Shown: piece by piece, positions 2,388 to 29,976 of the stretch
Layout: each line of letters begins with the position of its first letter
Numbering within the stretch: position 1 is the first letter of the stretch
The notes under the pieces: generated by a model
The model's database searches: none
Told to the model about the DNA's origin: nothing
What the model saw: the letters and a program-made list of their open reading frames with translations, nothing else
DNA from: Treponema sp.
Lineage (GTDB): Bacteria; Spirochaetota; Spirochaetia; Treponematales; Treponemataceae
Direction of reading: 5' to 3'
Length of the DNA stretch: 64,000 nt
NCBI GenBank assembly: GCA_050873685.1
Contig: JBNMJH010000009.1
Coordinates: forward strand, 43,591 to 107,590
Program-made: the position numbers and the translations under genes

Positions 2388-2942
2388 TTAGCCGCGAGCT
2401 GGAGCAATACTTACAAGCGAAAGCTCGCCGTCTGTAAGCACAGTAACATCTTTTCCAAGATTCAAATCTTTTACCTTGTAAATGTCGCCGATGTTCAAAG
2501 CTGAAACATCGATAACGATTCTTTCAGGAAGATTTGCAAGTGTAGCCTGAACTTTTACTTCAGGAACACGTTTTACCATAAAACCACCCTTCAAAACGCC
2601 AACCGGGTTTCCAGAATACTGAATCTTATATTTGTAAACAAGTTTTTCATCAGCATTAGGCGCGAAAAAGTCAACATGAAGAACAGAATCATTGCGGATA
2701 TTGTATTCAACATCCTTGATAAGAACATTTTCTTTTTTTCCGTCAACAACCAGCTCAACAGGTGTAGAACCAGTGATTGTGCGCCAAATTTTGTTAAATT
2801 CAACAGCATTAACTTCGATTGAAGTAGCCTCGCCCTTGTGGTTGTAAACAACAGCAGGGATACTACCTACTTTTCGAAGATTTTTGGCAGCTGTTTTTCC
2901 AGTAGTAGAACGAACTTTTGCATTCAAAGTCTGCTTAGTCAT
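2388..2942 (-). CDS. rplY: 50S ribosomal protein L25 / general stress protein Ctc (long form)
   Basis: The N-terminus MTKQTLNAKVRSTTGKTAAKNLRKVGSIPAVVYN and the 184-aa length are typical of L25/Ctc. Confidence 0.85.
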   Translation of the reverse strand: MTKQTLNAKVRSTTGKTAAKNLRKVGSIPAVVYNHKGEATSIEVNAVEFNKIWRTITGSTPVELVVDGKKENVLIKDVEYNIRNDSVLHVDFFAPNADEKLVYKYKIQYSGNPVGVLKGGFMVKRVPEVKVQATLANLPERIVIDVSALNIGDIYKVKDLNLGKDVTVLTDGELSLVSIAPARG

Positions 2943-3042
2943 TTTCTAAAAGCTCCTTATATCCTTAAAAATTAAGTAAATAATTTTATCACAAAACACA
3001 TATGAATGTAAACAGCATATTATTATTATGTTTACACTGAAT

Positions 3043-5259
3043 TTAATTTTCATACACCAGCTCAATTTCCACCGGGGCACTGTCAGAATACTGCCATTTC
3101 AAATATGCTCCGCCGGAAGAATTTTCTTCTTCAACCCAGGCATTCAAAAGCTCAACAAGATTTGTGGAAGTCACATTTCCAACAGTCAGCTCCTGGTTAG
3201 TAAAAAATTTGGAATTGAACTTTGAAAATGAATTAACTTTGCATATTTCAAAATGCTCAATACAAGAAGAAGCAAGTTTATCAAAAGGTTCTTTAGTAGA
3301 ATAATAACAATCAGACACACCAAATTTATAGTCATGGCTCAAGCTACAAAGCTTAACACACAAAATGCCTCCCAAATCATCATCCTCCTCAGTACCATCA
3401 TCATCCACGGTCAAACATCCCATATTTAAACAATTTCTAACGTAAGAACAACTACCAGACTGCAATTCTATTGCTCCTATAACACCACCAGTTTTTATCT
3501 GATTTGTTTTTTTGTTCTTAGCATCCCCTCTATTAACAGAATTAAAAACACCATTATCCTCTTTTCCCGATGGAATAAAATAACCTAGAATACCTCCAAC
3601 CATACATATAGGAGAACCTCCTATTGAAAAAGTGAAAACGGATATACTCCCAACATTCATACAATCTGATATTTTTCCGCCATTCATAGAACCACAAATA
3701 CCGCCCACAATAATATCTTCAGTACCAAGCCAATGCAGAACTCCCCTGTTTATACATTTTATTATTGAAGAGTTTGTAGCTTTGGAAACAATTCCTCCGA
3801 AATTCCCATGGCCAACACCTATCTTTGCACTATTTTCACAGTTTTCTACAATTCCACTGTCGATTTCTTTAACAATTCCACTGTTTGTAAAAGTTCCAGC
3901 TGATTTTAGATTTTTTATTGTTCCATTTTTTATATTAAGGAAAATTGAATTCAAATCAGTTTTTTCTGATGTTATTGTTTTTCCGTTTCCATCAAAAATT
4001 CCAGAAAAAGGACAATCACTTGGATTACCAATCCCAGCAAAAGAAGAAGCAGTATCAATAGTTATGTCTTCCTTTAATTTTATGCTGGATTCTTGCATAG
4101 CATTGCCATCGTTTACAAAACTGGCAAATTTTTCCAGTTCTTCAAGGCTAGAAACCGTAATATCAGTATAAATTTCTGGATTCCAATTACCAACAGCCGT
4201 GCTTATCGAAACTGGTTTTGTAAGATAGCCATATTGATTTATATGCCAGCCTTCACCAGTCGAATCAGAAATAAGGAATTTACCATAATCTTCCGGGGAA
4301 ACCGCATATCCATCACCACCAACTAATATTTTCTGCCCAATACTGTAGCTTTCGCTTTTTTCAAACACCAGTTTTGCCGTATAGGCAGAATTTTCAGGAG
4401 AAAGCTTGCTGATAATTTCTATTGTTTTGCCAGGCGCAAGGCAAATACCGTTGGAGTCAGAATTTTCTATGGTTACGCTTCCGCCAAGCCGAAGATTTCC
4501 TCCGCCTACATAGATTGCACCTATATTAGTGTCAGTCCATGATTTATTGCCGGAGAAAATTCCACTTTCAATAGTAACTGTAAATTCACCACCGGACAAA
4601 TATATCGCACCGCCTTTTTCTGATTCGTTATCCTTGAATTCGCTGTCAGAAATCGTCAGAGTCCCGTTTCCAACACAACAAATTGCGCCACTATAGGAAG
4701 AAGCCTTATTGCCTATAAATTTACAGCCAGACACAGAATGCTCTCCATCAGAAAACTCAATTGCGCCTCCTAGCCTGCCAGAGTTCTTTTCAAAAGCACA
4801 ATTTTGCAAAGAACTGTTTCCTTCACAATAAATTCCGCCGCCAACATCACTTCCTCTGCAATCTGTAATTTCACAGTTTGAAACATTTAATGTTCCACCT
4901 TCGAAATAAATTCCTCCGCCAGCTCCATTTTCTGCATAATTATTCCTAAGGGAACACTTTCTCAAAGAAAGATTCCCTTTACATAAAATTCCACCGCCAT
5001 GCCTAGCAGGAATCGAACCTGCAACGAATACTACCCTTCCATATGAAATTTCAATATTTTCAAGAGTTACAGAAGCCTTTTCTCCTATAGCAAATCCCCT
5101 TCCAGAAGAATTAAGATTCAAAAGCACTACGGAATCTGAAGAAAAACTTCTAACAGTTACCGTCAGTTCTTTTGGAGGATTTATTTCAACAAGAGCAGAG
5201 TTTTTTGAAAAATCAGTTTTAAAATCACCTGCTTCCGCATCAAAATTTCCGTCAACCAT
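3043..5259 (-). CDS. large beta-helix surface-type protein (PMP-like GGAI/GGGIY repeats N-terminal, GLUG-like GG[IV]xG repeats C-terminal)
   Basis: The N-terminal half has repeated GGGIYFEGG / GGGIYCEGN / GGAIEF / GGAIYLSGG motifs. The C-terminal half has FGGIVS, VGGICG, VGGILG, TGGVIG and LGGILC repeats. The ATG-defined N-terminus has no recognisable signal peptide. Confidence 0.6.
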   Translation of the reverse strand: MVDGNFDAEAGDFKTDFSKNSALVEINPPKELTVTVRSFSSDSVVLLNLNSSGRGFAIGEKASVTLENIEISYGRVVFVAGSIPARHGGGILCKGNLSLRKCSLRNNYAENGAGGGIYFEGGTLNVSNCEITDCRGSDVGGGIYCEGNSSLQNCAFEKNSGRLGGAIEFSDGEHSVSGCKFIGNKASSYSGAICCVGNGTLTISDSEFKDNESEKGGAIYLSGGEFTVTIESGIFSGNKSWTDTNIGAIYVGGGNLRLGGSVTIENSDSNGICLAPGKTIEIISKLSPENSAYTAKLVFEKSESYSIGQKILVGGDGYAVSPEDYGKFLISDSTGEGWHINQYGYLTKPVSISTAVGNWNPEIYTDITVSSLEELEKFASFVNDGNAMQESSIKLKEDITIDTASSFAGIGNPSDCPFSGIFDGNGKTITSEKTDLNSIFLNIKNGTIKNLKSAGTFTNSGIVKEIDSGIVENCENSAKIGVGHGNFGGIVSKATNSSIIKCINRGVLHWLGTEDIIVGGICGSMNGGKISDCMNVGSISVFTFSIGGSPICMVGGILGYFIPSGKEDNGVFNSVNRGDAKNKKTNQIKTGGVIGAIELQSGSCSYVRNCLNMGCLTVDDDGTEEDDDLGGILCVKLCSLSHDYKFGVSDCYYSTKEPFDKLASSCIEHFEICKVNSFSKFNSKFFTNQELTVGNVTSTNLVELLNAWVEEENSSGGAYLKWQYSDSAPVEIELVYEN

Positions 5260-20724: not shown

Positions 20725-20768
20725 TTATCGTGGAAAAATTGCAAAAACGGAAATGAATCACAAAAAAA
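20725..20768 (-). repeat. Rpn-leader repeat, copy b
   Basis: ttatcgtggaaaaattgcaaaaacggaaatgaatcacaaaaaaa lies ~215 bp upstream of the intact rpn ATG and abuts the higA 3' end. Confidence 0.85.
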
Positions 20769-20784
20769 GAGGAGAGATTTTTTC

Positions 20785-21084
20785 TTATATTTTTAAAAGC
20801 ACTTTTTCCGCAGTTTCTGCAGTTTTGGGAAGAGCAACGATTTCCAGTCCCATTCCAAGGCTGTCAAGGTAGTCAATAAGGGTAGAGATTTTTATGTCTT
20901 TTCGTTTTTCAATTTTTGAAACAGCTGTCTGTGTAAAATTCTGCATTTCAGACTGCTTTATATTTTGCTCTTCACGAAGCTGAGCAAGGTGGATTGAAAG
21001 AATTTCCTGCTCAGCCTTCAGGCGGGCACGCCGAACAGAGTCTTCAGACATCTGCGATTCCATCATTTTTACGGCATTTTTCAT
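20785..21084 (-). CDS. higA: XRE-family HTH antitoxin (HigA-like)
   Basis: NIKQSEMQNFTQTAVSKIEKRKDIKISTLIDYLDSLGMGLEIV is an HTH plus the typical C-terminal pattern. AGGAGG lies 6 nt upstream of the ATG at 21084. The gene overlaps the toxin gene. Confidence 0.75.
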   Translation of the reverse strand: MKNAVKMMESQMSEDSVRRARLKAEQEILSIHLAQLREEQNIKQSEMQNFTQTAVSKIEKRKDIKISTLIDYLDSLGMGLEIVALPKTAETAEKVLLKI

Positions 21085-21466
21085 TTTTTTCCTCCTGATC
21101 TTTTTCGTGGATCGCTATGATTCCTTCAGCTTCAGCAATAAGATTTTTGTAGAACTTATTTTGGTCTTTTCCTTTTTTGTCACCACCAGTAAGCAAAAAC
21201 GCTTTACGCTCAGAATCAAAATAATATGCAAATCTAAGAATATGATTTTTAGTTCTATTTCTAAGTTCTTTCAAATTAGAATGGTTTTTATTGCCATGCA
21301 GAACATCTGCATAAGGTCTAGGAAGATTCGGTTCTAAGCGCTGCAAAAGCAAAACTCGTTCCAGTACAGCTTCTTTAGATTCATCGTCTAAAGAACTGAA
21401 CCACTTATCATATTCGTATGATGATGCAACTTCCCATACAACTTTATTATATGCACTTGGATTCAT
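21044..21466 (-). CDS. higB: RelE/ParE-superfamily toxin, HigB/Gp49-like
   Basis: DKWFSSLDDESKEAVLERVLLLQ...LHGNKNHSNLKELRNRTKNHILRFAYYFDSERKAFLLTGGDKKGK is the characteristic killer-protein pattern. I set the start at ATG 21466 (MNPSAYNK), not the TTG at 21475. Confidence 0.75.
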   Translation of the reverse strand: MNPSAYNKVVWEVASSYEYDKWFSSLDDESKEAVLERVLLLQRLEPNLPRPYADVLHGNKNHSNLKELRNRTKNHILRFAYYFDSERKAFLLTGGDKKGKDQNKFYKNLIAEAEGIIAIHEKDQEEKNEKCRKNDGIADV

Positions 21467-21501
21467 ATTTGTCAAATAACAATATAAAAAGAGACGAATC
21501 T

Positions 21502-21591
21502 TTCGCGATTTCCGGCTCGCGCATTATCTTGCTGAACAGAAAGTCGTCCGTGAAAAACAAATCCTCGTATTTTTTTTGATTCGTACCTCAT
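21502..21591 (-). pseudogene. 5' remnant of a third rpn gene (first ~30 codons, frameshifted)
   Basis: 21502-21653 aligns to 19417-19566 with about 8 differences, including T8 versus T7. The homology stops abruptly ~35 bp from the higB start. Confidence 0.8.
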
Positions 21592-21606
21592 CTTGCCTCC
21601 AGATAT

Positions 21607-21651
21607 TTATCGCGGAAAAATTGCAAAAAACGGAAATGAATCACAAAAAAA
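21607..21651 (-). repeat. Rpn-leader repeat, copy c
   Basis: ttatcgcggaaaaattgcaaaaaacggaaatgaatcacaaaaaaa. Confidence 0.85.
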
Positions 21652-21673
21652 TCAAGGAAATTTTCACCGCCAG

Positions 21674-21859
21674 TTTTAGTTTTAATCAGCATGCCACTGA
21701 CTAGCAAATCAGCACGGCGCTTATTAGCTAGTCAGCACAGCACTGACTAACTAATCATCATAACACTGACTAGTTAATCAACAGACTGCTGATTATGTTA
21801 ATCATTAGACCGCTGATTAGACTAATCAGCGGCTCACTGACTAGTTAATCAGCGGTGTG
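21674..21859. repeat. tandem array: 7 units (plus 1 degenerate) of 23-24 bp, each with a 16-17-bp imperfect palindrome CTGAYTAG-N-TAATCAG
   Basis: Units start at 21697, 21720, 21743, 21766, 21789, 21813 and 21837, giving spacings of 23, 23, 23, 23, 24 and 24 bp. Unit 21813 (ctgattagactaatcag) is a perfect palindrome. There is no ORF of 60 aa or more in any frame. Confidence 0.9.
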
Positions 21860-21991
21860 TTGCACGGAAAGGAGATAAACCGCGTTATGGAAACAATTCA
21901 GAGGCTGCTATGGACTTGTTCAGAAGTATTCTACGGACATAAAGCGAGGCGTTGCATTACTGTATTTGCAGAGCCGCAAGTATAGTGAAGG

Positions 21992-22013
21992 AACGGAAAT
22001 GAATCACAAAAAA
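21992..22013 (-). repeat. Rpn-leader repeat, partial copy d
   Basis: acggaaatgaatcacaaaaaa. Confidence 0.7.
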
Positions 22014-22026
22014 TTCATGTCCTCGA

Positions 22027-22190
22027 GTTTTTATTTTTTGAAACAGCTGTCTGTGTAAAATTCTGCATTTCAGACTGCTTTATATCCTGTTCTTCTCGAA
22101 ACTGGGAAAAGCAGATTGAAAGAATTTCTGTCTCAGACTTCAGGCGGACACGCCGAACAGAGTCTTCAGACATCTTTGATTCAATCGTCC
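22027..22190 (-). pseudogene. truncated duplicate of higA (N-terminal half only)
   Basis: It aligns to 20906-21065 and includes a 49-nt identical run (ttttgaaacagctgtctgtgtaaaattctgcatttcagactgctttata). It would encode MSEDSVRRVRLKSETEILS...MQNFTQTAVSK followed by a premature stop. Confidence 0.75.
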
Positions 22191-22198
22191 ATAAAAAA

Positions 22199-23170
22199 CT
22201 AAAAGACTGAAAAAGTCATACCTATTTTTAATCCATAAAGAATAGTGCTGCTGCCAGATTTTTGCCTTGAAAGGACAGGTTTTGAACTATAGTAATTATG
22301 ATAAAAATTTCCTTTCATTAAATTTCCGTTCAATAAATCAAGTTCAATCAATGCAGCAATATTACTTGAAAATTTATAGCTAGAATAAACAGAAAACTTC
22401 AAATAATCAAATGAACCTTTTTGATAGCCGTTCAAATTGTACCAGCTATTTTTTGCAAAATGCTTGTCATAAGTTACTATATAAGAAAAGAAACTGAAAT
22501 TTAAATTGAAACCAAACAATATTTTTTCAGAAGGATATATTTCACATAAAAAGCCAGAAAAAAAATTAAAATACAATCTTTCTAAATCTATACCATATAC
22601 TTTGTGATATGCAGCATATTCACTATTCCATGGAACATCTTTTCCATTCAAGGAATAATCTTCCGCCCCGAAATACCCATAACCATTACCGGCTTCTATT
22701 TTGAAATACGAATAATCAAAAGTAAACAAAGGTGAAAATGTAAAATATTTTTTTTCAGTGTTTTTATTTGCAAGACTAAAGTTATATCCAAGTCCAATAG
22801 ATGAATTGAAAATCAAGCCAACATTCTCTTCCAATTTTGAATAAATGGTTTTTATTTCTCCAGAAGCGTTCCAGTCGCTGTCATACAAAGTTCCGCATTT
22901 TACAGGCAACGCAAAATCTGCATTTCCAAGAATATAGATATTTTTCCATCCGAATTTTGCCTTTGCTCCAAACTGATACAATGAATTCAAGTTCCATTCA
23001 AGCTTACTTTTCATTATTGAATCATCGGAGCTTGAATAAATCAATTCATTCAAACAACCTTTTGAGAAACTAAAATAAGGTGTAATTTCAAGCAGAAAAT
23101 CCTTTTTTTGTTCAGAAAACGCAGAAACGCCAAATACAAAAAAAACAAATAAAAAACAATAATTCCGCAT
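22199..23170 (-). CDS. omptin-like outer-membrane beta-barrel (putative protease), paralog A
   Basis: It has a signal peptide MRNYCFLFVFFVFGVSAFS and a C-terminal aromatic residue (TFSVF). LYDSDW matches the OmpT Asp83/Asp85 DxDW region and YDKHF matches the Asp210/His212 DxH region. It alternates aromatic and aliphatic beta-strand patterns. Confidence 0.55.
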   Translation of the reverse strand: MRNYCFLFVFFVFGVSAFSEQKKDFLLEITPYFSFSKGCLNELIYSSSDDSIMKSKLEWNLNSLYQFGAKAKFGWKNIYILGNADFALPVKCGTLYDSDWNASGEIKTIYSKLEENVGLIFNSSIGLGYNFSLANKNTEKKYFTFSPLFTFDYSYFKIEAGNGYGYFGAEDYSLNGKDVPWNSEYAAYHKVYGIDLERLYFNFFSGFLCEIYPSEKILFGFNLNFSFFSYIVTYDKHFAKNSWYNLNGYQKGSFDYLKFSVYSSYKFSSNIAALIELDLLNGNLMKGNFYHNYYSSKPVLSRQKSGSSTILYGLKIGMTFSVF

Positions 23171-23178
23171 ATAAATTA

Positions 23179-23217
23179 AAAAACAAAAAAAGGACGCTGG
23201 TAAAAAATCCAGCGCCC
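23179..23217 (-). terminator. terminator between the small lipoprotein ORF and omptin-like gene A
   Basis: The stem pairs cgctgg (23195-23200) with ccagcg (23209-23214), with flanking G-C pairs. On the minus strand it is followed by TTTTTTTGTTTTT. Confidence 0.55.
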
Positions 23218-23228
23218 CGTTATTTTAT

Positions 23229-23384
23229 TTATTTTGCTTCCTGAACTACAACTGTTGAATCTGCGTCAACTGTATTTGGAGTTTTCGCCTGCGAAGAAAC
23301 TTTTGTTGACGCACAGCTTGCAAAAAAGAATACAGTCAAAACAGAAACAACAAGAATTCTTGTAAATTGCAAAGACTTTCTCAT
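23229..23384 (-). CDS. small lipoprotein (51 aa), not in the ORF track
   Basis: My own translation gives MRKSLQFTRILVVSVLTVFFFASCASTKVSSQAKTPNTVDADSTVVVQEAK. The ATG follows immediately after the TAA of the upstream lipoprotein gene (gaggaaTAAATG), and the lipobox is FASC. Confidence 0.5.
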   Translation of the reverse strand: MRKSLQFTRILVVSVLTVFFFASCASTKVSSQAKTPNTVDADSTVVVQEAK

Positions 23385-24224
23385 TTATTCCTCATCATAA
23401 TCTGCTGGAATTGGATTGCCCTGAATATCAGAATAAGCAATGCTTCCTTTTACAGTCTGCTTATAATAAACTGTTAGATAGCGTCCAATTCTCTGCTGAG
23501 TTTTCTTTTCAAAACCTGTTACAGTATTTGAAATAGTCGCTGTTTCATAAGTTTCTGATCCGTCAGCATTCTGAAGTTCAACTTTATAAGAACCATCATC
23601 ATTTGCAGTAACAGCAATTTTTACAACAAGGTTTCCATCTGTAAGAGCAACAGAAGTATTTTCCCATGCTCCGCTTGTAGGAATAATCTGAGTTTCTTTG
23701 CCAAGTTCTACTTTATCATCGCCAATTTTGTCTGTAAAATCAGAACTGTTGTTATAGCCAAATACAGTTTCAGGAGTTTTCTCTACCCAAGAAACATACC
23801 ACTGAACTTTTTTTGTATTAACATTGTAACGAACAGAAGCAATTCCAAATGTATATACTTTTACACTCTTATCTTTTCCGTCCTGTTTTACTTTTTCAGA
23901 ATCATCATATTCACCAAATACAAATCCAAGTCCTGCATTAGAAACAACAGAATGGCTAGCATCAGTTGCAGACAACTCTGGCTTTTCAATTGTAATCAAC
24001 GCATTTGAACTATAGTGATTTGTTTTTGTAGTTTTAAATCCACGGTAGTAGTTGTAACCAGCAGCATCATCCGCTGTAACAGTGTCGCTTGCCTGACCAT
24101 GAGTAAATTCAATGTTTTCTCCATTGATTGCATCACCATCATCAGAGCCATCCGCACATCCCGCAAAACCAAACACCAATGCAGCGGCAACTGCACTACT
24201 TAAAAGAACCTTTGAAAGTTTCAT
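23385..24224 (-). CDS. surface lipoprotein, variable cassette A (currently joined to promoter/ATG: ON configuration)
   Basis: MKLSKVLLSSAVAAALVFGFAGCADGSDDGD has an AGC lipobox. A strong promoter and RBS sit upstream. The protein is distantly similar to cassette B: YYRGFKTT/YRRYWKQF, AGLGFVFGE/AGFAFDYNK and NLVVKIAVTANDDGSYKVEL/NVVTCVVKITQENKKYSVYL. Confidence 0.75.
   Translation of the reverse strand: MKLSKVLLSSAVAAALVFGFAGCADGSDDGDAINGENIEFTHGQASDTVTADDAAGYNYYRGFKTTKTNHYSSNALITIEKPELSATDASHSVVSNAGLGFVFGEYDDSEKVKQDGKDKSVKVYTFGIASVRYNVNTKKVQWYVSWVEKTPETVFGYNNSSDFTDKIGDDKVELGKETQIIPTSGAWENTSVALTDGNLVVKIAVTANDDGSYKVELQNADGSETYETATISNTVTGFEKKTQQRIGRYLTVYYKQTVKGSIAYSDIQGNPIPADYDEE
24190..24213 (-). 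repeat. inverted repeat IR-L (24 bp, perfect match to IR-R)
   Basis: The plus strand actgcactacttaaaagaaccttt is the reverse complement of aaaggttcttttaagtagtgcagt. It covers codons 5-12 of cassette A. Confidence 0.95.
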
Positions 24225-24256
24225 TTTTTTTCTCCTCTTTTTTGAGTTTTTCTTTA

Positions 24257-24284
24257 ATTATATTTTCATAAGAAAAATTGTCAA
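24257..24284 (-). promoter_or_regulatory. near-consensus sigma70 promoter reading out through IR-L
   Basis: On the minus strand: TTGACA (24284-24279), a 16-nt spacer and TATAAT (24262-24257). GAGGAG follows, 7 nt before the ATG at 24224. Confidence 0.75.
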
Positions 24285-24300
24285 TATTAAAAAAAGTCTT

Positions 24301-24951
24301 CTATTTATAGATTCCTGATTTCCATTTTTCGGAACGGCGATTTTCCGGAATGAATTTGCCTGTGTAGACCAGGTAGCGGTAGAAAGTTCCGGCGGAAACT
24401 CCTATTTCGCGGGCGATTCTGCATTTTGGCGTTCCTGCGGCCAGAAGGGAATTTATTTTTTTGCTCTGCGAAACGCATTTCTGGTTCAGACGGCCTCTTT
24501 TTCCAGGAATTCTTCCAAGTTTCTTGCCGGAAGCTTTGCGGGCGGCAAGCGCTTCCTTTGTTCTCTGGCTTATGAGCTGGCGTTCTATTTCCGCGCTTAT
24601 GGAAAACGCAAAAGCAAGAATTTTTGACTGTATGTCATTTTGAAGAATGAAATTTTCTTTTATTGTCCGGATGTTGCATTCTTTTGCGATGCAGATATTC
24701 AGAATTTCCATAATCATAAAGAAATTTCTTCCGAGCCTCGAAAGCTCCGTGCAGATTATTGTATCGTCCTTCCTGATTTTTCCGAGCAGCGAGCCGAGTT
24801 TCCGCTTTCTGTAGTTCTTTGTTCCGCTTATAGTTTCTTCAATCCAGCCGTCAATAAGAATATTATGGATTCCGCACCACCGCCTTATTTCAAAACGCTG
24901 GTTCTCCACGGTCTGCTTGTCTGTGCTTACACGAATATAGCCGTACGTCAT
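24301..24951 (-). CDS. serine recombinase, resolvase/invertase family
   Basis: MTYGYIRVSTDKQ carries the catalytic Ser context. LSRLGRN and the AEIERQLISQRTKEAL E-helix are present, with a C-terminal HTH (CRIAREIGVSAGTFYRYL). GGTGAGG lies 7 nt before the ATG at 24951. Confidence 0.85.
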   Translation of the reverse strand: MTYGYIRVSTDKQTVENQRFEIRRWCGIHNILIDGWIEETISGTKNYRKRKLGSLLGKIRKDDTIICTELSRLGRNFFMIMEILNICIAKECNIRTIKENFILQNDIQSKILAFAFSISAEIERQLISQRTKEALAARKASGKKLGRIPGKRGRLNQKCVSQSKKINSLLAAGTPKCRIAREIGVSAGTFYRYLVYTGKFIPENRRSEKWKSGIYK

Positions 24952-25064
24952 TTTTTTCCTCACCTTTTTTGAATAAAAAGATACAGGAAATTTCTATTTG
25001 TTTTCAAAATTTGGGAACGGGAGGAAGACTGTATTTTTTATAATACGCAGACAATAAACACACT

Positions 25065-25088
25065 AAAGGTTCTTTTAAGTAGTGCAGT
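25065..25088 (+). repeat. inverted repeat IR-R (24 bp)
   Basis: aaaggttcttttaagtagtgcagt lies in the reading frame of cassette B (AAG GTT CTT TTA AGT AGT GCA GT). Confidence 0.95.
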
Positions 25089-25836
25089 GCTTGTTGCTGC
25101 AATGGCGACAATGTTTGTTGGCTGCAAGGCAGATGAAGATGGCGAGGGCGATACTGACGGTTCAAAGTGGAATCTCACAATGACTGTTGATGCTACAGAC
25201 AGCGCAAAAACTGAACTGACAAAAAAATACCGTCGCTATTGGAAACAGTTTTCCAGAGATGAAAAATGTGCAGAAATCACTACAACACTTACTTTAAATT
25301 TGGATGAATGCATACTTCCTGACGGAGCAGCTTCTGTTGCAGGATTTGCTTTTGACTATAATAAAAATACAAAAGATGCCAAAAAAGTTGATTTCAACTT
25401 GATTGGTGTAAACCCAAAAACACAGAAATTCTATGTAGAAAGATACACTGGAGTTTCTGAGCCGGGTTCAGAATCATTGGACACAGATGAAAAAGCTATA
25501 AGCTCCAACGCAACAGACCTTGAAACTGTAGCAAAATCAAGCGGTTGGTGCAATCTTACAGACAAAATGTACTCTCGAAAGGACAATGTAGTTACTTGTG
25601 TTGTAAAAATCACACAGGAAAACAAGAAATATTCTGTTTATCTTGGAGATGTAAAAGTTGCAGAATACGATGCTTCTGCTTCAACTTACACAAATACTAT
25701 CAACAAGAAAGATTATGCTGTGGGTGGAATTCTTTGCTACGGTAACGCTGAAAAAGGCGTAAAACTTATTGCAAACTACAGCACAAATAAGAGCGATGTA
25801 ACTGGAAAACTGATGGAAAACATCGATGAAAGATAG
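25087..25836 (+). CDS. surface lipoprotein, variable cassette B (currently lacks ATG/RBS/promoter: silent configuration)
   Basis: The frame is open from the TGA at 24970, but it contains no in-frame ATG/GTG/TTG before the GTG at 25087. Upstream of IR-R it reads ATA AAC ACA CTA. With the swapped head the product would be MKLSKVLLSSAVLVAAMATMFVGCKAD (lipobox VGC). Confidence 0.6.
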   Translation: MLVAAMATMFVGCKADEDGEGDTDGSKWNLTMTVDATDSAKTELTKKYRRYWKQFSRDEKCAEITTTLTLNLDECILPDGAASVAGFAFDYNKNTKDAKKVDFNLIGVNPKTQKFYVERYTGVSEPGSESLDTDEKAISSNATDLETVAKSSGWCNLTDKMYSRKDNVVTCVVKITQENKKYSVYLGDVKVAEYDASASTYTNTINKKDYAVGGILCYGNAEKGVKLIANYSTNKSDVTGKLMENIDER

Positions 25837-25857
25837 TTTCATCCGCTAAAAGCAAAA

Positions 25858-25887
25858 AGGCACTTCGGTCGGAAGTGTCTTTTTTTA
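25858..25887 (+). terminator. rho-independent terminator after cassette B
   Basis: The stem is aggcacttc / gaagtgtct with loop ggtcg, followed by TTTTTTT. Confidence 0.7.
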
Positions 25888-25905
25888 TTTTCAAGCAGCG
25901 TATTT

Positions 25906-26847
25906 ATGAAGAAAAAACACTTGTTCAGAAATCTTATTCTCTCAATATTTTTACTTGCATCTTCAAAATGCTTTTCAGAAATTCAAATCATTCCAAACAT
26001 AGGCTTTTCCTTCGGCTCAATGGGAGAATATCTATACTCGCCTTACAGCGCCAACCTGTGGAGCTACCTGGAATGGGAAGAAAAACCGTCCATAAGTGTT
26101 GGAAGCAACTTTTTATTCAAATTGAAAAACAATTATTTTAAATTCAATATTTTCTTCAGTTTGCCTCTAGAATGCGGAAAAATGACCGATTCCGACTGGT
26201 CAGAATCCGGCATAAACTATGCATACTCCGTAAATGAAAACAAAATCAAATGTGCTTTCCGTTTGGAAACAGAATACAACTACGAATTCTATCTTAACAA
26301 TTTCTTAAGCATTTCCCCTGCCGCGGGAATAAAGTTCTTTTATTCTTCATACAAAGCCAGAAACGGTTACGGATGGTACGGAACAGAGGAATGGTCAAAG
26401 AACGGCGAACTGGTTTCCTGGAACGATGACAATGCGCATTACTTTCCAGATGAAAAATACAAACTCGCCGGAATTGACTATTCAAGATGCACGTTGATTT
26501 TTAACACAGGCTTTTTTTTCAACTTAAGGCTAAAGAAGACAAAAATAAGCGCAGGTTTTCTTTTTAGTCCGATTTCCTACATTTATGCGCTAGACCATCA
26601 CCTTGGAAAAACAAACAGTTTTAAATATGAAGAAATACAATATCCACTTTTTAAGTATTATGAAACAACACTTGAAGCATCCTACAAAATAAACAGGCTT
26701 TTAAAGGCATATTCAAAAATCAGCTATATCTTTGGCTTAAAAAGCAAAGGCGAAAGCTATAAAAATTCATCTTCAAAATCATATCAAAAATCCGGTTCGG
26801 ACTTTTATTCGGCAGTTTTCTGCGCAGGACTAGGATTTTGCTTTTAA
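25906..26847 (+). CDS. omptin-like outer-membrane beta-barrel (putative protease), paralog B
   Basis: It has a signal peptide MKKKHLFRNLILSIFLLASSKCFS and a C-terminal GLGFCF. MTDSDW matches the DxDW region and LDHHLG the DxH region. It is collinear with paralog A: GYGWYGTEEWSKNGELVSWN versus GYGYFGAEDYSLNGKDVPWN. Confidence 0.55.
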   Translation: MKKKHLFRNLILSIFLLASSKCFSEIQIIPNIGFSFGSMGEYLYSPYSANLWSYLEWEEKPSISVGSNFLFKLKNNYFKFNIFFSLPLECGKMTDSDWSESGINYAYSVNENKIKCAFRLETEYNYEFYLNNFLSISPAAGIKFFYSSYKARNGYGWYGTEEWSKNGELVSWNDDNAHYFPDEKYKLAGIDYSRCTLIFNTGFFFNLRLKKTKISAGFLFSPISYIYALDHHLGKTNSFKYEEIQYPLFKYYETTLEASYKINRLLKAYSKISYIFGLKSKGESYKNSSSKSYQKSGSDFYSAVFCAGLGFCF

Positions 26848-26926
26848 AATAAAAATCTCCAAAAAAAATAACAAAAATCCGCTTCCCGAATAAAAAAAAC
26901 ATTTCTCACAGCAGGCAGGCAAATTC

Positions 26927-27024
26927 TCAGTGAGAATCCATCAGAAACTCAGTGAGAATTTATTTTTCCGCACTGAGAATTTAAAAAAAAGCAGTGAGTT
27001 TCCAGCAAAGAGCAACTGAGATTT
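26927..27024 (+). repeat. five phased direct repeats of (C)AGTGAGAATTT-like motif, 21-22 bp apart
   Basis: The TGAG cores start at 26931, 26953, 26974, 26995 and 27017. The first copy forms the palindrome attctcaGtgagaat with 26923-26929, and an inverted copy atttctca lies at 26901-26908. Confidence 0.8.
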
Positions 27025-27034
27025 TTACGCTTCA
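27018..27034 (+). repeat. 17-bp direct repeat, left copy (gagatttttacgcttca + A-run)
   Basis: It matches 27945-27961 exactly, and both copies are followed by an A-run. Confidence 0.9.
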
Positions 27035-27178
27035 CAAAAAAAAATACATATACAATCTTTGCAACCCATTTTCATTATATTATAAACACCTGCATAACTT
27101 GCGTACGGAATTTATTATGAAAAATTACAACCTTACAAAACTGTTTTTTTGTGTTATAATTATCAATAGGAGTCAGCT

Positions 27179-27703
27179 ATGGAAATTAGTATTGAAATTG
27201 ACGGCCTTACAAATTGCCTTGTGAACCGGGCTACTAAGGAAGAATGCGACACTCAATACAGACGTATCTCCAAAACAATAACAAAAGCTGATGCAGAAAA
27301 ACTTATGGCTAATGGCTGGCTGTTTGACTGGAGTATTCCTCATTCAAATGGATATGAAATATATGAACTCCTGATAAAAGGCTCAGAAGAACGGCAGGGC
27401 TTGATTGCTTTAAAACACATCAGGGATCAATTATATACCCACGTTGATGTAGTAGAATCAGCTCCAATGAATCGTGGCAAAAGCGGCATTTACCAAGGAG
27501 TTGGCGCGCATTTATTTGCAATTGCCTGCAAATTAAGCTGGAATGCAGGAAATGAAGGCTTTGTTCAGTTCAAGGCAAAATCAAACTTGGTTGAACATTA
27601 TAGACAGACTTTAAAAGCACAGAACATCGATGACCAGAATATGTTTATTGACAGTTATGCAGCTTTGACACTCATAAAAAAATATTTTTCAGAGGAGGCT
27701 TAA
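27179..27703 (+). CDS. hypothetical protein, possibly GNAT-fold
   Basis: The 174-aa product has QGLIALKHI...VDVVESAPMNRGKSGIYQGVGAHLFAIACKLSWNAGNEGFVQFKAKSNLVEHY, which resembles an acetyltransferase core (beta4-alpha3 with a GxG-like loop). This assignment is from pattern recall only. Confidence 0.45.
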   Translation: MEISIEIDGLTNCLVNRATKEECDTQYRRISKTITKADAEKLMANGWLFDWSIPHSNGYEIYELLIKGSEERQGLIALKHIRDQLYTHVDVVESAPMNRGKSGIYQGVGAHLFAIACKLSWNAGNEGFVQFKAKSNLVEHYRQTLKAQNIDDQNMFIDSYAALTLIKKYFSEEA

Positions 27704-27704
27704 A

Positions 27705-27923
27705 ATGATTGCAACAAAAGAAAGAGAACCTGTCGTTTGTGATACATACACAATTACACTCTGCGAATCCGATTCTGCAATGAGATTTGGAGAAGAAATG
27801 CCTGATTCAAGACTCACAGAGCCTTCTGATGGAAAGATTTTCCGTTTACGCGAAGCAATTCTTTTATCAAAACGCCTTGGACGTCCTTTAACAAAAGCAG
27901 AAATGAAGCAGTTTGTACTTTAG
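27705..27923 (+). CDS. small hypothetical protein (72 aa), coupled to the upstream ORF
   Basis: The start lies 1 nt after the upstream TAA, and GAGGAGG lies upstream of the ATG. I recognise no motif. Confidence 0.45.
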   Translation: MIATKEREPVVCDTYTITLCESDSAMRFGEEMPDSRLTEPSDGKIFRLREAILLSKRLGRPLTKAEMKQFVL

Positions 27924-27944
27924 GCAGAAGAATCTTCAAAAGCA

Positions 27945-27961
27945 GAGATTTTTACGCTTCA
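27945..27961 (+). repeat. 17-bp direct repeat, right copy
   Basis: gagatttttacgcttca lies immediately before the argS terminator hairpin. Confidence 0.9.
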
Positions 27962-27991
27962 AAAAAAATCAGCGGAATGGATTTTCCGCTG
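27961..27991 (-). terminator. rho-independent terminator of argS
   Basis: An 8-bp perfect stem pairs cagcggaa (27970-27977) with ttccgctg (27984-27991). On the minus strand it is followed by T8. Confidence 0.75.
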
Positions 27992-28011
27992 ACTCAAATA
28001 ATCTAGTTTTT

Positions 28012-29838
28012 CTACATTTTTTCCAGGAACGGAACAAGAACCATGTTCATGGCTTTTTTCATTACGGTCAATGTGCATTCCGCAAGGAAAAGGCGCGCGC
28101 TTTTAAGCTCGGCGGTTTCTGCGTTCACAATTGAGCAGTTCTGGTAGAATTTGCTGAAAAGCTTGCTCAACTCGTAAAGATAAGCCGCCATTACGCTTGG
28201 ATCAAGGTTTTCCGCGGATTTGGAAACTGTTTCCGGGAAGTTGCCGAGCATTTTTATAAGCTCCCATTCTTCCGGAGCTTTCAGGCAGTCCGCATATTCA
28301 ACACTTGCAGAAACACCGGAAGCCTTGGCTTTTTCCAGAATAGAGCTGATTCTTGCGCCCATATACTGAAGATACGGCCCTGTGTTTCCGTTGAAACTAA
28401 GGCTTTCCGCCGGATTAAAAAGCATATCCTTGATTGGAGTCGCCTGCAGAAGATAATAATGCAGAGCCGCAAGCGCAACTTTTTCAGCCACATCGTCCGC
28501 ATCAACATCCGCCTCGCGGCCACGCTCCTCTATCGCCTTCAGAGCGTCGCTGTGCAGGGAATCCAGAAGGTCGTCCGCATCAACAATTGTTCCTTCACGG
28601 CTTTTCATGCGTCCGCTAGGCAAGTTCACAAGCCCGTAGCTCAGATGGTAAAGTTTTTCAGCCCAGTCAAAGCCAAGTTTCTTCAAAATATAGAACAAAA
28701 TCTTGAAATGATAGTTCTGCTCGCTTGCAACTACATAAACCAGCTGGTTAAAAGGCCAGTCCGCATGTCGGCTGATTGCAGTTCCAATATCCTGCGTAAT
28801 ATAAACAGAAGTTCCATCCTTGCGCAGAAGAACTTTCTCGTGACTGTCCTCATCTTTTCCCTTGCCTACAACGTCTGTAACATCAATACGAACAGAGCCG
28901 TCCTCCGCCTTGAAGAAAATGCCTTTTTCCAGGCCTTTCAGGATTTCATCCTTTCCCTTCAAGTACGTTTCGCTTTCAAAATAGAACCGGTCAAAAGAAA
29001 CTCCGGTGCGCGCATAAGTTTCCTTGATTCCGCTGATTGTCCAGTCGTTCATTTTCTTCCACAAAGCATGAACTTCCGGGTCGCCGGCTTCCCACTTAAC
29101 AAGCATTTCCTCTGCCTGCGCAAGAGCCTCCGGATGAGCTGTTTCCGGCTTGTCCTTCTCGCCTTTCAGCCAGCGGTCGAACTCAACATAGCACTGGCCG
29201 ACAAAATGGTCGCCCTTTATTCCCAATGATTCCGGAGTTTCGCCTTTAGCCTCGTGGAACCACTTGTATGCAAGCATGCTTTTGCAGATGTGAACGCCTC
29301 TGTTGTTCACAAGATTTACCTTTTGAACTTCAGCGCCGGCGGCTTTCAGAATGCGGCTTACAGACTCTCCGAGCGCGTCATTTCTTAAATGTCCAAGATG
29401 AAGCGGCTTGTTTGTGTTAGGAGCAGAAAATTCAATCATAACTTTTCTGCCGTCAAGGAAAGGTTTTCCTTCTTCATTCAAAGAACCGTACTTTTCGCCC
29501 TGCTCAAAAATCTTTTTCAAGATTGAGCCAGCCTGGTCAGCCTTGTTAAGCTTCAGGTTCACATACGGGCCAACAGCGGCAAATTCACCGCAAGTTTTCG
29601 CCTCGCCTGAATATTTTTCATTTATAATTTTTACAACTTCAGCTGAAATCTGCGGAGGCGCCATGCGCAAAGCCTTTGCAAAAGCAAACATCGGAACTCC
29701 AAGGTCGCCCATTTCCGGATTCGGCGTAGTCTGAACCACAATTTTTTCCTCATCAACAGAATCTCCGCCCTTTGTTGCCATAAAATCGTTGAGCGCATTG
29801 CAAACAACTTTTCTCATTGCAGATTTCACATCAGCCAT
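28012..29838 (-). CDS. argS: arginine--tRNA ligase
   Basis: SAPNTNKPLHLGHLRN is the class I HIGH region. The length (608 aa) and the C-terminal anticodon-binding region are typical. Confidence 0.9.
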   Translation of the reverse strand: MADVKSAMRKVVCNALNDFMATKGGDSVDEEKIVVQTTPNPEMGDLGVPMFAFAKALRMAPPQISAEVVKIINEKYSGEAKTCGEFAAVGPYVNLKLNKADQAGSILKKIFEQGEKYGSLNEEGKPFLDGRKVMIEFSAPNTNKPLHLGHLRNDALGESVSRILKAAGAEVQKVNLVNNRGVHICKSMLAYKWFHEAKGETPESLGIKGDHFVGQCYVEFDRWLKGEKDKPETAHPEALAQAEEMLVKWEAGDPEVHALWKKMNDWTISGIKETYARTGVSFDRFYFESETYLKGKDEILKGLEKGIFFKAEDGSVRIDVTDVVGKGKDEDSHEKVLLRKDGTSVYITQDIGTAISRHADWPFNQLVYVVASEQNYHFKILFYILKKLGFDWAEKLYHLSYGLVNLPSGRMKSREGTIVDADDLLDSLHSDALKAIEERGREADVDADDVAEKVALAALHYYLLQATPIKDMLFNPAESLSFNGNTGPYLQYMGARISSILEKAKASGVSASVEYADCLKAPEEWELIKMLGNFPETVSKSAENLDPSVMAAYLYELSKLFSKFYQNCSIVNAETAELKSARLFLAECTLTVMKKAMNMVLVPFLEKM

Positions 29839-29894
29839 AGTAAAACTCCATTTTTCAAAAAAAAAGGAATGCTTAAAGCATTCCCTTTGACAAG

Positions 29895-29976
29895 TGCGGC
29901 GAACAGGACTTGAACCTGCACGTCTTGCAACACAAGGACCTCAACCTTGCTTGTCTACCAATTCCAACATCGCCGC
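29895..29976 (-). tRNA. tRNA-Leu (anticodon GAG), type II with long variable arm
   Basis: The reverse complement is GCGGCGATGTTGGAATTGGTAGACAAGCAAGGTTGAGGTCCTTGTGTTGCAAGACGTGCAGGTTCAAGTCCTGTTCGCCGCA. The acceptor stem is GCGGCGA/TCGCCGC, the anticodon stem CAAGG/CCTTG with loop TTGAGGT, and the T-loop TTCAAGT. CCA is not encoded. Confidence 0.9.

Follow-up and report, generated by a model that had tools for sequence, protein, structure and literature searches.

In the window, a 64,000-nt stretch of Treponema sp. DNA to whose positions all coordinates refer unless another locus is named, two divergent lipoprotein genes, A and B, flank an 851-bp segment that encloses a gene for a serine recombinase and is bounded by a short perfect inverted repeat. 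Comparisons with public assemblies show that this segment inverts in nature exactly at the repeats and that both genes occur with both of the resulting chimeric N-termini. The locus is very probably a self-contained two-state switch operated by site-specific inversion, with an invertase of the Mpi family lying inside the segment that is turned. In the following, L-numbers denote related loci or contigs from public assemblies and P-numbers called public proteins; both are labels of this analysis.

According to the mechanism we propose, one end of the segment would contribute the only strong promoter, together with a ribosome-binding site (RBS), the start codon ATG and the four codons (MKLS) with which the signal peptide of a lipoprotein begins. 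The invertase would pair the two inverted cores, which are located in the (K)VLLSSAV codons, cut and rejoin within them, and so flip the segment; by analogy with the established chemistry of serine recombinases, this would proceed through synapsis, staggered double-strand cuts at the central dinucleotide, rotation and religation. The gene facing this promoter-bearing end would read MKLS, KVLLSSAV and then its own hydrophobic stretch and lipobox, and its product would be made and exported as a lipoprotein, while the gene facing away would lose promoter, RBS and start codon and be silent. Since a weak promoter candidate for the recombinase also lies inside the segment, expression of the enzyme would not depend on orientation.

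The inverted repeat and the invertible segment

The 24-mer AAAGGTTCTTTTAAGTAGTGCAGT forms a perfect inverted repeat, with two exact copies in the window that are 851 nt apart, as the original prediction had described it. Allowing up to three mismatches, we still found two matches in the 64 kb, and none in 100 dinucleotide-preserving shuffles. The left inverted repeat (IRL, 24190-24213, minus strand) covers codons 5-12 (K5-V12) of the signal peptide of gene A, and the right inverted repeat (IRR, 25065-25088, plus strand) lies in frame within gene B; each copy encodes KVLLSSAV in frame. A comparison across lineages identifies the inner 20 bp, GTTCTTTTAAGTAGTGCAGT, as the conserved recombination core (24190-24209 in IRL, 25069-25088 in IRR); the outer 4 nt of the repeat vary in other lineages on the side of the gene that lacks a start.

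The segment between the repeats (24214-25064) occurs in public assemblies in both orientations relative to identical flanks. All elements predicted for its left end are present. They read outward on the minus strand and comprise a promoter that matches the consensus in 12 of 12 positions (TTGACA-16-TATAAT, 24284-24257) and what we refer to as the head (24214-24237), formed by the RBS GAGGAG (24237-24232), the ATG (24224-24222) and the codons M-K-L-S, which run into IRL. There is one such promoter-RBS-ATG-MKLS head per locus, and a second sigma-70 promoter with a 12/12 consensus match is found at the equivalent segment end in the L004 lineage. The opposite, recombinase-proximal end is referred to as the tail. 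The candidate promoter of the recombinase, TTGAAA-18-TATCTT (25007-24978, minus strand), lies inside the segment and matches the consensus only weakly, in 9 of 12 positions.

Gene A (23385-24224, minus strand) is complete and ON in the window. Its protein of 279 residues begins with MKLSKVLLSSAVAAALVFGFAGC, followed by ADGS, and has the lipobox FAGC. Gene B (25066-25836, plus strand; lipobox FVGC) is headless and therefore OFF: its frame runs through the repeat as ...INTLKVLLSSAVLVAAMATMFVGC, followed by KADED, and reads IKRYRKFLFVFKIWEREEDCIFYNTQTINTLKVLLSSAVLVAAMATMFVGC from the upstream stop codon onward, and from the TGA at 24970 up to the repeat this frame contains none of the codons ATG, GTG and TTG, just as had been claimed. 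The statement that the two genes share little beyond the repeat also held, in that the signal peptide is the sole similarity between A and B detected by BLASTP (17 of 29 residues).

In several related loci (L003, L004, L006, L007, L009, L012), a short hairpin stands directly before AAAAGGAG, just upstream of the RBS of the head (e.g. L004 5961-5978). Its pairing is kept while its sequence is lineage-specific (GTAAAC..GTTTAC, GTAAGCC..GGCTTAC, GTAGACC..GGTCTAC), which suggests a conserved stem in the 5' untranslated region. The hairpin is absent from the lineage of the window, where the promoter sits close to the RBS.

Both orientations in public assemblies

We scanned the exact 24-mer against one genome per species and obtained 7 stretches, five of them filed as Treponema and the other two as 'bacterium' and 'uncultured Prevotella sp.'; the contig of RUG314 (Treponema) is collinear with the window. 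A scan of the inner 20-mer against metagenome contigs yielded 13 further stretches. Each site was typed by the side of the segment it adjoins, head (...GGAG...ATGAAACTTTCAAAG) or tail, and by the lipoprotein body that follows. The same gene bodies followed the head in one assembly and the tail in another, and both chimeric states were seen for the gene types A, B, H, K, S and G.

The inversion at the repeats that had been predicted is directly visible in pairs of assemblies. The flanks of L019 and RUG314 are collinear (99.3% and 99.95%) around a middle of 967 bp that is inverted, and the same arrangement of collinear flanks and inverted middle is seen between L014+L016, which form one contig, and L004 (chromosome CP091737.1). 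In L027, gene A and the two genes downstream of it, a 51-residue open reading frame (ORF) and a β-barrel gene, match the window with 99.93% over 2712 nt and are joined through the repeat to the tail end; the L027 contig begins exactly at the other repeat. Finally, L045 and L049 have flanks that are 100% identical over 1660 and 1454 nt and a middle of 967 nt that is likewise 100% identical and inverted.

An inverted repeat may confuse de Bruijn graph assemblers and thus produce apparent flips, and several contigs do break exactly at a repeat or contain nothing but the segment (L003, L017, L027, L037). We give this explanation hardly any weight, given that the repeat of the window, at 24 bp, is below the usual assembly k-mers, that both states occur across many independent studies and assemblers, and that L027 and the pair L045/L049 are k=141 contigs, with 58 bp being the longest repeat. 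In the case of L045 and L049, both MEGAHIT contigs from the lineage with this 58-bp repeat, the junctions are spanned by real k-mers and the flip is therefore no assembly artefact. L037, which has the same 6-nt flank at both ends, was considered as an instance of both orientations in one sample and rejected, as L005-like strains start both genes with the same bases.

Called proteins show the same two states. P0121 is 100% identical to A but begins with MFSKFGKREEARIFYNTQTINTL-KVLLSSAV (...IFYNTQTINTL-KVLLSSAV) and represents gene A fused to the tail, OFF, which is the decapitation foreseen for this gene upon inversion. The predicted ON form of B (MKLSKVLLSSAVLVAAMATMFVGC...), for which inversion was expected to supply MKLSKVLLSSAV-LVAAMATMFVGC, was found in P0187, P0188, P0244 and P0250, which are 89-90% identical to B; P0187 and P0188 start with MKLSKVLLSSAVLVAAMATMFVGCKADEDGEGD and match the prediction exactly. 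The ON N-terminus of B also occurs in L008 and L028-L031, and the search with the predicted ON form further returned OFF-gene calls beginning with MATMFVGC. Among the listed members of 90%-identity clusters, the ratio of ON to OFF was 5/5 for A, 3/5 for B and 9/6 for H, and 13 contigs carry the flipped state of the H type, compared to at least 23 with the other. Looking for both orientations in related Treponema assemblies, as the original prediction had proposed, thus returned both. L028-L031 are human-gut loci (contig names Fiber-Hadza-Nepal and others) in which the B-type gene is ON and the K-type gene OFF; the contig names point to non-industrialised populations. The switch is thus not restricted to rumen Treponema.

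These flips also dispose of the scenario that had been named as a refutation, in which the repeat reflects ordinary conservation between the signal peptides of paralogues and a mutation of its start codon has made gene B a pseudogene. It is true that many lipoproteins of the family share MKLSKVLLSSAV. Orthologues of B with a full head exist, however, and what precedes the B repeat is no decayed 5' region but the segment's recombinase-proximal end; moreover, the tail found upstream of B is also fused to gene A, in L027 and P0121. We consider the probability of this scenario to be practically nil.

The enclosed recombinase

The recombinase gene (24301-24951, minus strand) is located inside the segment, upstream of the lipoprotein promoter and co-oriented with it, and its product of 216 residues starts with MTYGYIRVSTDKQ. 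In agreement with the serine recombinase predicted between the repeats, the protein matched the Pfam Resolvase family with an E-value of 4e-34. Its match to HTH_7 was just below the cut-off (22.2 bits versus 23.8), and this region aligns to the helix-turn-helix (HTH) of Gin, whose structure is also the best solved match to the recombinase (E-value 4e-14). The reference to Mpi in the original prediction proved apt, since residues 1-198 of the 216 passed, by a small margin, the cut-off of the NCBIfam model NF009949 for Mpi-family serine-type recombinases, the family of the master DNA invertase (286.4 bits versus 272, E-value 1e-85).

The homologues of the recombinase number thousands, and those listed outside its own Treponema lineage are 62-68% identical. 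Several of them are named as Mpi family by their source; they come from Treponema, Hallella (Prevotellaceae) and Clostridia and are 63-66% identical, with the protein of Hallella bergensis at 64%. In an alignment of nine homologues, four of which have an Mpi-type source name, every invariant residue is present in the recombinase of the window. It has kept the nucleophile motif YGYIRVS(T)DKQ with Ser9 as well as ELSRLGRN, both of which are invariant across the Mpi-family homologues.

In every two-site locus examined, the two repeats enclose the recombinase gene, which has the same orientation as the head, and it has remained intact across recombinases of 66% to 100% identity. The same holds for the placement of the gene in every two-site contig of the genome and metagenome scans, where we saw no orphan headless site. 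Two homologues, in L023 (Treponema) and L025 (Hallella), have no repeats flanking the gene, as expected of the classical arrangement. We infer that the enclosed enzyme is the catalyst of the inversion.

Site specificity and location of the crossover

Loci that were found via the recombinase protein alone (71-78% identity, including human-gut Hadza/Nepal contigs) have the exact 20-mer in both arms; as they were retrieved by a protein search, this set is free of bias from searching with a DNA motif. In L032, whose recombinase is 71% identical, both arms share the variant core TCCTTTTTAGTAGTGCA, and in L021, at 66% identity, GTTCTTTTTGGTAGTGC is found beside a headless lipoprotein gene. The codons directly after the core vary at synonymous positions, whereas the core never does. 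Polymorphisms just outside the core remain with their own side in both orientations, which places the crossover inside the 20 bp.

All loci examined have exactly two sites, and neither the window nor any fetched locus contains extra silent copies of the repeat; we therefore rejected an interpretation of the locus as a shufflon, a system of at least three sites with more than two possible arrangements.

Weighing the inversion switch

Several observations count against a switch that is site-specific, reversible and self-contained. All comparisons span separate assemblies, and even the flipped pair with 100% identity, L045 and L049, comes from two different samples. The two orientations could thus be rare, fixed rearrangements that distinguish strains, as opposed to phase variation that reverses frequently. 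We regard this as unlikely, because flips recur independently in at least three lineages, one flipped pair shows zero nucleotide differences over ~4 kb, ON and OFF are roughly balanced in the 90% clusters, and the recombinase stays intact over a range of 66% to 100% identity. The segment would rather be expected to switch frequently within clones.

Further, there are lineages with a perfect repeat of 54-58 bp, in which the whole signal peptide is shared, and here homologous recombination could contribute. Taken further, real inversions could result from RecA-type exchange between signal-peptide repeats, with the enclosed recombinase being a passenger or serving other loci as a 'master' invertase. 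Such action in trans on many loci is known for Mpi of Bacteroides (PMC4747536), and there are homologues without flanking repeats in Treponema and Hallella. For the loci studied here we nevertheless find this route very unlikely. The perfect repeat has only 20-24 bp in the lineages of the window, L028 and L034, and ON forms of B-type genes still occur there. This is very short for RecA-mediated exchange. In addition, synonymous sites within the core do not vary, a single variant of it is common to the two arms of L032, and the recombinase gene is inside every two-site locus examined.

For site-specific inversion by the enclosed enzyme, a further point is that the crossover can only be placed within the 20-bp core and no finer. 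Moreover, the site has no hix-like dyad symmetry above chance (at best 7 of 12 arm positions), and its similarity to hixL and gix does not exceed chance either (best ungapped match 12/26). Filing it with the Hin-type sites was rejected for these reasons.

Two observations concern the autonomy of the module and the tightness of its OFF state. In L032, the ATG of the recombinase is only 18 nt from the tail-side repeat (L032 5963-6003; also in L033), so that its promoter may lie outside the segment and the module may not always be fully self-contained, as judged from this lineage. The promoter in L032 and L033 would fall beyond the repeat, on the antisense strand of the silent lipoprotein gene, and the flank could thereby influence expression of the recombinase. 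The silent gene of some strains receives an in-frame TTG or ATG from the tail flank (MFSKFG..., MIYFY...); the OFF state may thus not be absolute, with possible low-level expression of the OFF gene.

Such tail-flank starts (MFSKFGKREEARIFYNTQTINTL-, MIYFY-, MTWFY-; proteins P0121, P0128, P0164 and P0165) are present in most strains. Compared to L027, the tail end of the segment in the window (24990-25064) has the run GGGAAACGGG shortened by one base to GGGAACGGG, which puts the TTG of the tail out of frame. This tail end also contains an outward-facing TATAAT (25039-25044).

The switched lipoproteins

The lipoproteins at these sites form one divergent family, with 25-48% identity between types, to which both A and B link; about 10 gene types are combined in differing pairs around segments that are nearly identical. 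Pfam and NCBIfam searches with A and B returned no family. Their AlphaFold2 models are confident, with a mean predicted local distance difference test (pLDDT) score of 87.7 for A and 85.7 for B, and both are predicted β-sandwiches resembling concanavalin A (ConA). The best PDB matches of the models were ConA-like, GH16, CBM66, galectin and SasG/Aap lectin domains, with template modelling (TM) scores of only 0.3-0.45. The models suggest lectin-like surface proteins at the level of the fold class only and, since the fold search yields nothing beyond fold-class similarity, we claim no specific function for them. The switch would serve a bet-hedging variation of a lectin-like surface lipoprotein, and perhaps antigenic variation, with hosts, phages or substrates as possible selective agents.

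A K-type gene has an in-frame TAA a few codons past the lipobox in L015 (from 3348) and L018 (from 3507), where the reading frame ends in KTD or KTDED. Of these two assemblies, one has the interrupted gene after the head and the other after the tail, and one arm of the switch thus seems to be pseudogenised in some strains.

Neighboring genes and genomic setting

Directly downstream of gene A is the ORF of 51 residues mentioned above (23229-23384, minus strand), which has the lipobox FFASC and is conserved in L011, L027 and L038-L041; because of its position directly 3' of A, it is probably co-transcribed with this gene. It is followed by a terminator-like hairpin (23191-23218) and, downstream of this A cassette, by a gene for an omptin-like outer-membrane β-barrel (22199-23170, minus strand). 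A paralogue of the latter lies downstream of gene B (25906-26847, plus strand; Pfam Omptin E-value 4e-10), 22 nt after a second terminator-like hairpin (25854-25884). No solved structure was matched by the sequences of these barrels.

Nearly every lipoprotein gene of this kind adjoins an omptin-like barrel gene, which is co-directional for the types A, B, S and K2 and convergent for H. A general co-transcription of barrel genes with the switched lipoproteins was rejected on account of the convergent H-type gene. In the window, the hairpin is followed by only ~20 nt before the ATG of each barrel gene and co-transcription is plausible there, but whether the barrels are co-regulated with A or B is uncertain. 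Each lipoprotein type has its own diverged barrel gene, with 28-34% identity between types, which suggests cognate pairs of lipoprotein and barrel.

The GC content is 31-40% at 22000-28000, a region that comprises the switch, the lipoprotein genes and the barrel genes, and 43-50% in the flanks, which include argS (28012-29838) and a tRNA-Leu gene (29894-29976). The switch region looks like a variable low-GC island beside a tRNA gene. In L011, the A arm and the segment are 98% conserved relative to the window, and a different lipoprotein gene takes the place of B and its barrel gene, with the similarity on this arm stopping exactly at the repeat. One could take the segment for a portable expression-site module that serves an exchangeable library of lipoprotein and barrel genes, with the repeat acting not only as the ON/OFF crossover point but additionally as an integron-like junction for the capture of genes or their exchange between strains. 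The variety of pairings around near-identical segments, the end of similarity exactly at the repeat in L011 and the low GC content of the region speak for this idea, and the 63-66% identity of the recombinase to proteins of Prevotellaceae and Clostridia is compatible with horizontal spread; we put it forward tentatively, as a possibility that is on the whole rather doubtful.

Genes for a Gp49/HigB-like toxin and an antitoxin-like protein are found to the left of the switch, at 20785-21475, and the antitoxin ORF recurs there in truncated form (MSEDSVRRVRLKSETEILSI...) at 22015-22173. Positions 20756-22011 and 22014-22186 align to one and the same stretch of L002, the latter at 85%, which marks a cassette boundary at a partial duplication. 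In the human-gut lineage, genes with PDDEXK_2 and HTH_Rpn_C domains (Rpn-type nuclease-like) are located on both sides of the switch region (L028 2655-3494 and 9172-9987), and in L021 such a gene is present on one side only (2703-3500).

Relation to known inversion systems

The master serine invertase Mpi of Bacteroides fragilis (FinA, Ssr2) flips promoters at seven loci for capsular polysaccharides as well as further regions. It belongs to the same recombinase family (NF009949) and, as in the Treponema switch, a promoter segment between short inverted repeats is flipped, turning surface structures of gut anaerobes ON and OFF. The Treponema system differs in that its recombinase gene is inside its own invertible segment, in that its sites lie in coding sequence, namely in signal-peptide codons, and do not flank intergenic segments with a promoter only, and in that the segment carries an RBS, an ATG and the first codons besides the promoter and switches two genes reciprocally. 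Further, Mpi acts as a 'master' in trans on many dispersed regions, whereas the 64-kb window contains only two sites (at up to three mismatches), and the host is a spirochaete and not a member of the Bacteroidota.

In the Hin switch of Salmonella, the hin gene lies inside an invertible segment of ~1 kb with an outward promoter. Like Hin, Gin, Cin and Pin, the Treponema enzyme is a small serine recombinase with a C-terminal HTH, and Gin is its best match among solved structures. Inversion by the Hin-type enzymes requires a recombinational enhancer bound by Fis. The site in Treponema lacks the 26-bp form of hix and gix, an imperfect dyad around a central 2-bp crossover (dyad at most 7/12, 12/26 matches). 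Hin moves a promoter only, and Gin, Cin and Pin exchange the 3' ends of genes for tail fibres, whereas the Treponema switch swaps 5' heads.

The closest functional analogue of the Treponema switch is provided by the mba/UU376 and UU172/UU171 elements of Ureaplasma parvum, in which inversion at short inverted repeats joins the 5' region of a surface-protein gene, coding for signal peptide and membrane anchor, now to one and now to the other of two ORFs in opposite orientation, so that their expression alternates (PMC3047005). The candidate recombinases there, XerC, RipX and CodV, are of the tyrosine type (PMC3599477), in contrast to the serine recombinase of Treponema; also, the switched proteins bear no relation to each other, the host belongs to the Mollicutes, and one repeat of the UU172 element is in an intergenic spacer, unlike the sites in Treponema. 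At the vsa locus in Mycoplasma pulmonis, site-specific inversions place a promoter, an RBS and a 5' coding region before silent, 5'-truncated lipoprotein genes (PMC2268961). The enzyme, HvsR, is a tyrosine recombinase encoded near the vsa locus, whereas the Treponema enzyme is of the serine type and encoded within the segment. The vsa system moves 714 nt of the 5' part, compared to a head with ~12 nt of coding sequence in Treponema, and involves many silent genes with interwoven inversions at multiple sites, compared to two genes. As the only recombinase in the Treponema locus is of the serine type, its relationship to the Mollicute switches is one of functional analogy and not of common descent. 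Shufflons of Bacteroides (Tsr0667) also vary outer-membrane protein clusters of gut anaerobes by inversion (PMC4747536); they differ from the Treponema switch in using a tyrosine recombinase, multiple sites and SusC/SusD-type loci.

The original prediction had held that no lipoprotein switch exchanging 5' heads was known in a spirochaete-like genome. We indeed found no description of one for Treponema or other spirochaetes: our literature search for lipoprotein invertons in these organisms returned hsdS invertons only, and the main text of a systematic survey of gene-altering inversions mentions neither Treponema nor signal peptides. Variation of tprK in Treponema occurs by gene conversion. 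The literature search yielded only two kinds of phase-variable system for Treponema, namely variation through repeat tracts in T. pallidum (PMC11868660) and hsdS invertons, which have Treponema among their hosts (PMC7672463). As a general claim of novelty the statement was too strong, since head-swapping switches have been described in Mollicutes (PMC3047005, PMC2268961). Inversion that swaps lipoprotein heads is thus already known there, and the self-enclosed version with an Mpi-family enzyme in Treponema is new, without being categorically new.

With this switch, phase variation of surface lipoproteins by means of an invertase would become part of the known biology of spirochaetes, and the switch would present an Mpi-family 'master' invertase as a compact, self-contained local switch. 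Because the crossover is inside the signal peptide, its hydrophobic stretch is encoded by 20 bp that act as the recombination site as well. The small module of 851 bp and two 20-bp sites could serve as a genetic toggle. As it is present in treponemes of the rumen and of the non-industrialised human gut, its orientation could be read from metagenomes, where it would be a possible marker of the selection that phage, host antibody or substrate exert on the surface of Treponema.

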